Origin: an uncultured Nitrospiraceae bacterium | GTDB lineage: Bacteria; Nitrospirota; Thermodesulfovibrionia; Thermodesulfovibrionales; Thermodesulfovibrionaceae | Assembly (NCBI GenBank): GCA_937139565.1 | Contig: CAKZQH010000106.1 | Location: forward strand, 9,289-73,288 | Length of the DNA: 64,000 bases | Direction: 5' to 3' | Shown: positions 25,967-26,530 of the stretch, piece by piece | How positions within the stretch are numbered: the stretch's first letter is position 1 | How the letters are laid out: every line of letters begins with the position of its first letter | The notes under the pieces: model-generated | Databases searched by the model: none | Told to the model about the DNA's origin: nothing | What the model saw: only the letters and a program-made list of their open reading frames with translations | Position numbers and translations under genes: made by a program

Positions 25967-26530
25967 ATGATTTCCACAACCGAATTTAAGAAAGGCCTTA
26001 AAATCGAATACAAAGGAGAGCCTTATGAAATAATCGATTTCCAGCATGTAAAGATGCAGCAAAGGGCACCAATTGTTAGAACAAAGATAAAAAATCTGAA
26101 AACTGGAAGGGTTCTTGAGGAAAACTTCTCTGCAGGAGAGAAGTTTGAAAAACCCCAACTCGAAGAAAAACAGATGCAGTATCTGTATTCTCAGGGCGAT
26201 AGCTATGTTTTTATGGATATGGAATCATATGACCAGATTTCAATACCAAAGGATAGAATAGGAGAAGCTCTTTACTATATTAAAGAGGAGATGATTGTAG
26301 ATGTCATCTATTATAAGGGAGAGCCTCTTGTAATACAGCCGCCAATGTTTGTGGAGCTAAGAGTAGTAGATACAGAACCAGCTTTTAGGGGTGATACCGC
26401 CTCAGGAGGAGCCAAACCAGCAAAGCTTGAAACAGGGCTGGTTGTAAAAGTTCCCTTTCATATTCAAAATGGCGATTTATTAAAAATAGATACCAGAACA
26501 GGTGAATACATAGAAAAGGTAAAGGAGTAA
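25967..26530 (+). CDS. efp: elongation factor P (non-canonical loop)
   Basis: FQHVK...[42 protein letters not shown]. Confidence 0.95.

Follow-up and report, generated by a model that had tools for sequence, protein, structure and literature searches.

A full three-domain elongation factor P (EF-P), the factor that aids ribosomes past Pro-Pro stalls, is encoded in a Thermodesulfovibrio genome (phylum Nitrospirota; 1.99 Mb; 99.97% complete) with Gln at the tip of its active loop and Arg directly after it. The protein is the only EF-P of this genome, its loop is conserved among related species and recurs in several other phyla, and searches of the genome turned up no known modifier gene. Its relatives place the loop as a derivative of the Arg-type EF-P loop. 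The protein would be active, its loop would work unmodified, and the side chains of that loop would contact the tRNA. The chances are about even that it is a working housekeeping EF-P whose Gln-Arg loop acts without a dedicated modification.

The window, meaning the whole stretch of 64,000 nucleotides that was analysed, carries the efp gene (187 aa) at positions 25967..26530 on the plus strand, as supported by its open reading frame, Pfam, TIGR00038, and AF2/Foldseek. An AGGAGG ribosome-binding site, read directly from the DNA, lies at 25955..25960 (plus strand), 6 nt 5′ of the efp ATG, and overlaps the stop codon of a pepP-like gene. This gene (24889..25956, plus strand) is directly upstream of efp and encodes an M24 Xaa-Pro aminopeptidase with Pfam Peptidase_M24 and Creatinase_N domains. 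Just downstream are accB (26535-26981, plus strand; Pfam Biotin_lipoyl) and accC (26982-28337, plus strand; Pfam Biotin_carb_N, CPSase_L_D2, and Biotin_carb_C), which are the housekeeping context of efp and lie outside the feature itself. No terminator separates the four genes from pepP to accC, as would fit co-transcription. The only terminator-like hairpin in the pepP-efp-accBC stretch is on the minus strand, inside accB (26921-26938).

The identity of the product is confirmed by profile and structure comparison. The Pfam domains EFP_N (KOW-like), EFP (OB), and Elong-fact-P_C are all above cut-off and span residues 3-184. On the EF-P equivalog TIGR00038 the protein reaches 245.5 bits (cut-off 185.8), and on NF001810 it reaches 248.4 (cut-off 161). 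The models for EfpL remain well under their cut-offs, with 138.1 against 216 for NF003392 and 129.6 against 264 for TIGR02178. The predicted fold has the three-domain, tRNA-like shape of EF-P, and its top Foldseek matches are EF-P structures with TM values of 0.8-0.9, including 1ueb, 6s8z, 5j3b, and 6enj. With a mixed alignment, AF2 gave a model (pLDDT 92.4) in which residues 18-28 and 36-43 form strands and, by DSSP, residues 29-35 a loop. In the model built from Gln-Arg-type sequences only (pLDDT 91.4), the hairpin is zipped up to M30/R33 and closes with a two-residue turn, Q31-Q32. The two models differ on the extent of the loop, and both place Q31/Q32 at the apex and Arg33 atop the descending strand.

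The β3/β4 loop consists of seven residues, K29 M30 Q31 Q32 R33 A34 P35, whose codons occupy 26051..26071 on the plus strand according to the gap-free alignment, the AF2 DSSP assignment, and conservation. Its centre holds Gln32, with Arg33 adjacent. Lys or Arg at the loop tip is typical and not universal, as 4.1% of EF-Ps are without it (PMC6544042). The DNA from 26045 to 26086 reads cat gta aag atg cag caa agg gca cca att gtt aga aca aag and encodes residues 27 (His) to 40. Gln32 is encoded by caa at 26060-26062 and Arg33 by agg, so that the dipeptide occupies 26060..26065 on the plus strand. In HMMER alignments with solved EF-Ps, the loop region has no gaps. The same stretch stands opposite VKPGKGAAFVRTK of Clostridium thermocellum EF-P (1yby) and opposite QKLGRGGAKV of Thermus thermophilus EF-P (1ueb), which puts Gln32 where other EF-Ps have the modified Lys34 (E. 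coli numbering) or Arg32, with Arg33 next to it. The sequence-only reading had placed Gln at the modified position and Arg beside it, and the codons and the alignment bear this out. It had given the segment as 26041-26086; the end is exact, and the start falls 4 nt before the His codon. Arg33 is presumed to be the functional basic residue of the loop.

Among 24 related species genomes, the amino acids of the loop are identical except for one A34I replacement, and all loop codons vary synonymously (CAA/CAG, AGA/AGG/CGA, GCA/GCT/GCG, and CCA/CCT/CCC/CCG). The loop is thus no sequencing accident. The pattern KMQQR[A/S/T/I]P is found in 20 of 20 sampled species of the genus and in further families of the order. 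MQQR.P is present in 83 of the best 120 database matches, the rest having K[MV]GRGGA, and together with the synonymous codon variation this points to purifying selection on the loop.

Other classes of Nitrospirota have KPGKGGA or KPGKGPA loops, and the loop of Thermodesulfovibrionales is KMGRGGA. In the tree, the Gln-Arg proteins are nested inside the KMGRGGA proteins of this order, which shows that the KMQQRxP loop, invariant across its Thermodesulfovibrionales subclade, derives from Arg-type relatives. The order Lys to Arg to Gln fits the reconstruction in PMC6544042. Natural loops such as KMARGSA, KTARGSA, KMAQRSP, and KIAQRQA are intermediate-like, and stepwise substitution through observed intermediates (KMARGSA, KMAQRSP, and others) is favoured over a frameshift as the probable route. 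A compensated frameshift was considered and rejected; a one-base shift of ATG GGC AGG GGA GGC GCC yields only the final Ala-Pro and not Gln-Gln-Arg. Two origins within Thermodesulfovibrionia were likewise considered. The free tree has two groups, yet a single clade is not rejected (AU p = 0.35).

Non-canonical loop tips were surveyed in the best 150 representatives of 50%-identity clusters. Gln is at the tip in 15 of them, 13 with Q-R and 2 with Q-A-R. The loops of the 13 Q-R representatives are MQQR[ATKR]P, MAQRSP, TAQRKP, CQQRKP, IAQRQA, TAQRRA, RMQQRKA, and HQQQRRG. Other tips in the survey are Asn in PGN[WL]R and Met in TGMRKA; with the two Q-A-R loops, these come from nine representatives. 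In the best 150 cluster representatives, a tip other than Lys or Arg is always followed by Arg at +1 or +2. Across 28 aligned EF-Ps of the Gln-Arg type, drawn from several phyla, Gln32 and Arg33 are the sole invariant loop residues.

A scan for the pattern K-M-Q-Q-R-x-P, with one genome per GTDB species, gave at least 120 loci; of these 120, at least 105 are efp genes, which places this EF-P loop in at least 105 species genomes. The majority of the 80 titled rows of the scan belong to Dehalococcoidia, SAR202, or other Chloroflexota. The remaining titled rows comprise Thermodesulfovibrionales, MAGs labelled Planctomycetia or Omnitrophica, and Paceibacterota/Parcubacteria. Cluster look-ups are in agreement, with SAR202, Dehalococcoidia, Patescibacteria, and Nomurabacteria. 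Each of five complete Dehalococcoidia chromosomes that carry a KMQQRxP loop has a single efp. At least two sequence contexts surround the loop in Dehalococcoidia, ..DYERHKMQQRAPVTRIK.. and ..EYYQQKMQQRAPVYHIK.., seen at six loci and at others, and either context is that of the only efp in the complete chromosomes checked. A PepP-EF-P fusion was considered for some high-GC Dehalococcoidia, where stop-to-stop frames reach 400-575 aa, and was set aside, as the EF-P retains its own Met start. At six such long-frame loci the EF-P starts are MSINFGDL.. and MTLSYGEL.., and the extra length looks like an open upstream frame rather than a fusion.

Sequence phylogeny suggests that several bacterial phyla evolved the KMQQRxP loop independently. 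The tree comprised 149 EF-Ps, 37 of them KMQQRxP rows, and was computed with the loop columns removed. The KMQQRxP proteins take several separate positions in it, mostly beside K-M-G-R-G-[GS]-A proteins, and the group labelled Planctomycetia/Omnitrophica adjoins Lys-type loops instead. The Arg-type sisters nearest the SAR202 KMQQRxP group are also Chloroflexota. When the 37 rows were forced into a single clade, delta lnL was 226 and the AU test gave p = 8e-5, which rejects a single ancient subfamily spread by gene transfer. In three lineage contrasts, positions 31-35 are the only ones that change in parallel, and no co-evolving positions were found elsewhere in EF-P. The loop thus acts as a self-contained module, reached repeatedly or via very local recombination; transfer of the loop alone by recombination may be the alternative to repeated evolution.

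The genome has one match each to PF08207 and PF09285, which makes this efp the sole copy at 99.97% completeness. A second, canonical efp, which the sequence-only reading had named as a finding that could speak against it, was not found in the genome, and the epmA and earP genes it had also mentioned gave no accepted match. For EpmA, nothing in the genome is above cut-off; the best genX match is a 530-aa LysRS-like frame with 258.9 against 286.9. EpmC was not found in the genome, and neither was deoxyhypusine synthase (PF01916), for which the positive control matched in 6 genomes. A search for EarP (PF10093), run without a positive control, gave no match in this genome or 80 others of the order. 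Volkwein et al. 2019 (PMC6544042, Dataset S1) list EpmA, EpmC, EarP, DHS, and YmfI all as absent for the EF-P of Thermodesulfovibrio yellowstonii, and this agrees with the negative EpmA, EpmC, EarP, and DHS results in the present Thermodesulfovibrio genome.

The gene neighbourhood offers no linked modifier gene either. In 93 KMQQRxP loci no candidate was found, and pepP is the only neighbour common across phyla. In 69 of the 93 loci, which come from several phyla, efp is directly preceded by a pepP-like M24 gene in the same orientation, and pepP accompanies efp genes of many loop types. In the window and in the loci surveyed, pepP and efp are two proline-related functions kept together. The other neighbours are xseA/xseB, aroQ, a xerC-like gene, clpP/clpX, and accB/accC. 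Beyond pepP and housekeeping genes the loci have no conserved neighbour, and a modifier encoded beside efp was considered and rejected.

The genome has the usual need for EF-P. In its crude ORF set there are 885 PP motifs (observed/expected 1.03) and 46 PPP motifs (1.38), and the polyproline content is therefore normal and not depleted. The conserved PPP motifs are in long housekeeping ORFs and include IPPPNVTG in a 942-aa ORF and IPPPKGD in a 594-aa ORF. The ABCF linker domain ABC_tran_Xtn (PF12848) has no match in the genome, and its control was positive in 8 of 14 genomes. The genome thus seems to lack a backup of the Uup/YfmR/EttA type for difficult peptide bonds. With normal PP/PPP content and no ABCF factor found, no known backup would stand in for EF-P. 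The sole copy, the normal PP/PPP content, and the lack of an ABCF match in the genome lend indirect support to the relief of polyproline stalls by the Gln-Arg EF-P.

Among the known types, the Arg-type EF-P without EarP is the closest. This type has K-[ML]-G-R-G-G-A and is represented by T. thermophilus (1ueb/4v6a) and Deinococcus radiodurans. It likewise has three domains, the same loop length, K29, and M30, and, as in the Gln-Arg type, it has no known modifier. In contrast, residues 31-35 of the Gln-Arg loop are QQRAP and not GRGGA; the loop has no Gly, its tip is Gln, its Arg comes one residue later, and it has gained a Pro. Dataset S1 of Volkwein et al. 2019 (PMC6544042) gives the D. radiodurans protein as M32/R34 and lists no modifier for it; this protein restores an E. 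coli efp uup mutant to ~80% without a partner enzyme (PMC12931083).

The unmodified PGKGP EF-P of Actinobacteria (Corynebacterium glutamicum, 6s8z) is likely free of PTM, and the Pro after its tip is thought to stiffen the hairpin. Its structure matches the fold of the Gln-Arg EF-P with a TM of 0.89 (Foldseek). The PGKGP loop has a Lys tip, Gly flanks, and a Pro before the tip, whereas the Gln-Arg loop lacks Lys, Gly, and the pre-tip Pro; its K-M-Q-Q-R-A-P does not form the palindromic P-G-K-G-P. Only the post-tip Pro is common to both, and in a gap-free alignment that of the Gln-Arg loop sits one residue further along. EfpL/YeiP (E. coli, 8s8u) is similar in relying on an Arg close to the KOW-loop tip, which in EfpL is unmodified. 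However, EfpL has an extended 9-residue loop, SPTARGAAT, with a central Arg, and is a paralogue beside EF-P, while the Gln-Arg type has 7 residues and is the sole copy. The 7-residue loop and the scores of NF003392 and TIGR02178 under cut-off set the protein apart from EfpL/YeiP.

The protein does not belong to the modified types either. Its loop lacks the Pro-Gly-Lys of the Lys-type (EpmABC/YmfI), and its genome has no EpmA above cut-off and no EpmC. It has neither the tip Arg nor the Gly of the EarP-rhamnosylated Arg-type, and PF10093 was not found in the search without a positive control. The DHS-associated EF-Ps, with a Lys or Asn tip, are set apart by the absence of PF01916.

The Gln-tip EF-Ps of Volkwein et al. 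2019 (PMC6544042) are the same thing. Their T. yellowstonii protein, YP_002248247.1, is M32/Q34 and has the loop KMQQRAP. In that work, Gln tips make up 0.6% of 1166 EF-Ps. The residue is tabulated and K34Q is tested in the E. coli scaffold; the full motif, its recurrence, and the adjacent Arg are not described there. Gln-tip EF-Ps are also mentioned by Sieber et al. 2024, and the literature searched held no paper on the MQQR loop of EF-P or on EF-P in Dehalococcoidia. The distinct EF-P class proposed by the sequence-only reading stands, on purifying selection on the loop, the sole efp, the lack of a known modifier gene in the searches, and recurrence in other phyla, but it is not a new class, since it appears in the 2019 table as M32/Q34. 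That reading had allowed that the motif might fall into an already characterised class; the class was listed in 2019 and is uncharacterised. What is already known is the residue pattern M32/Q34, listed but not studied. What is new is the full motif, the Gln-Arg core, the status as sole EF-P, the breadth of occurrence (105 species genomes or more), and the evidence that the loop originated repeatedly.

The starting point of the Gln-Arg loop was the KMGRGGA loop of an Arg-type EF-P, a type without a known modification enzyme and able to work unmodified. In the change the glycines all disappeared, Gln entered the tip, and Arg came to follow one residue later and then Pro, giving K-M-Q-Q-R-x-P. 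In a mechanism without modification, the guanidinium of Arg33 and the amides of Gln31 and Gln32 may contact the 3′ (CCA) end of the tRNA, and the glycine-free, Pro-capped hairpin would be rigid, as the PGKGP loop is in the unmodified actinobacterial EF-P. An unmodified loop is suggested because no modifier is known for the parent M32/R34 type, whose D. radiodurans member works without a partner, because the loop arose several times, including in Patescibacteria MAGs, and because the 93 loci hold no linked candidate enzyme. It is further suggested because the tip position, or one shortly after it, is basic in every case, and because the loss of glycine and the trailing Pro predict a stiff hairpin. 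Against it, the E. coli EF-P with K34Q is inactive (PMC6544042), so that a lone Gln tip fails in the canonical loop. Gly at -1 is essential in both model proteins of the same work, the two AF2 models disagree on loop extent, and the EarP searches had no positive control. The same inactivity of K34Q would suit a new modification by an enzyme not yet linked to EF-P, such as N5-methylation or another change of Gln32, or a change of Arg33. Most of the EF-P/IF5A types studied require a modification, about half of bacterial EF-Ps fall outside the known classes (PMC13602936), and the invariance of Gln32-Arg33 across phyla would suit an enzyme recognition site. Such a modification is nevertheless rather doubtful. 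The 93 loci, which span several phyla, hold no candidate linked to efp, and the parent Arg type can function unmodified. The several origins, including Patescibacteria MAGs (one of ~0.4 Mb), would call for a modifier recruited each time or a universal enzyme, and the recurrent origin and the Chloroflexota sisters make repeated co-acquisition of a dedicated modifier less likely.

It is unlikely that the register is shifted by one, with Arg33 forming the structural tip and corresponding by homology to the Arg at the tip of the ancestral loop, which would make the protein an Arg-type EF-P in disguise. Arg does follow every non-basic tip, the Pro is at +2 from Arg33 as in the PGKGP loop, and KTARGSA, KMARGSA, KMAQRSP, RTAQRKP, and KIAQRQA look like a path that moves the Arg by one place. 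However, both flanks of the loop align without gaps to canonical EF-Ps, and both AF2 models predict a Q31/Q32 apex, with R33 starting the descending strand. A loss or change of the polyproline-rescue function, with the specificity weakened or re-targeted, is improbable. The tip and both flanking glycines, critical in model EF-Ps (PMC6544042), are replaced, and different loop types rescue different motifs (Sieber et al. 2024; PMC12931083). Yet this efp is the sole copy in the genome, polyproline motifs are not depleted, the search for an ABCF backup gave no match, purifying selection is strong on the whole protein and on the loop, and the rest of the protein has no parallel changes. Besides the housekeeping EF-P with an unmodified Gln-Arg loop, a broader reading has a low probability. 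K-M-Q-Q-R-x-P may be a discrete alternative active-loop design that bacteria of at least four phyla came to independently, starting from the Arg type, and in which Gln-Arg either bears a novel modification or activates the PTC by a chemistry unlike that of a long basic side chain.

In all studied EF-P/IF5A proteins the loop tip bears a long basic side chain, which in most cases is lengthened further by a modification. A Gln-tip loop is here the only EF-P of free-living bacteria with normal polyproline content, though a Gln-tip EF-P of E. coli is dead. The identical loop apparently evolved repeatedly, including in the abundant ocean SAR202, and is a natural experiment on the chemistry of the loop tip. 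Thermodesulfovibrio species can be cultivated, which makes mass spectrometry and complementation practical. About half of bacterial EF-Ps lie outside the known modification classes and have no assigned activation mode (2026 review, PMC13602936), and the Gln-Arg type is a direct way into this group.
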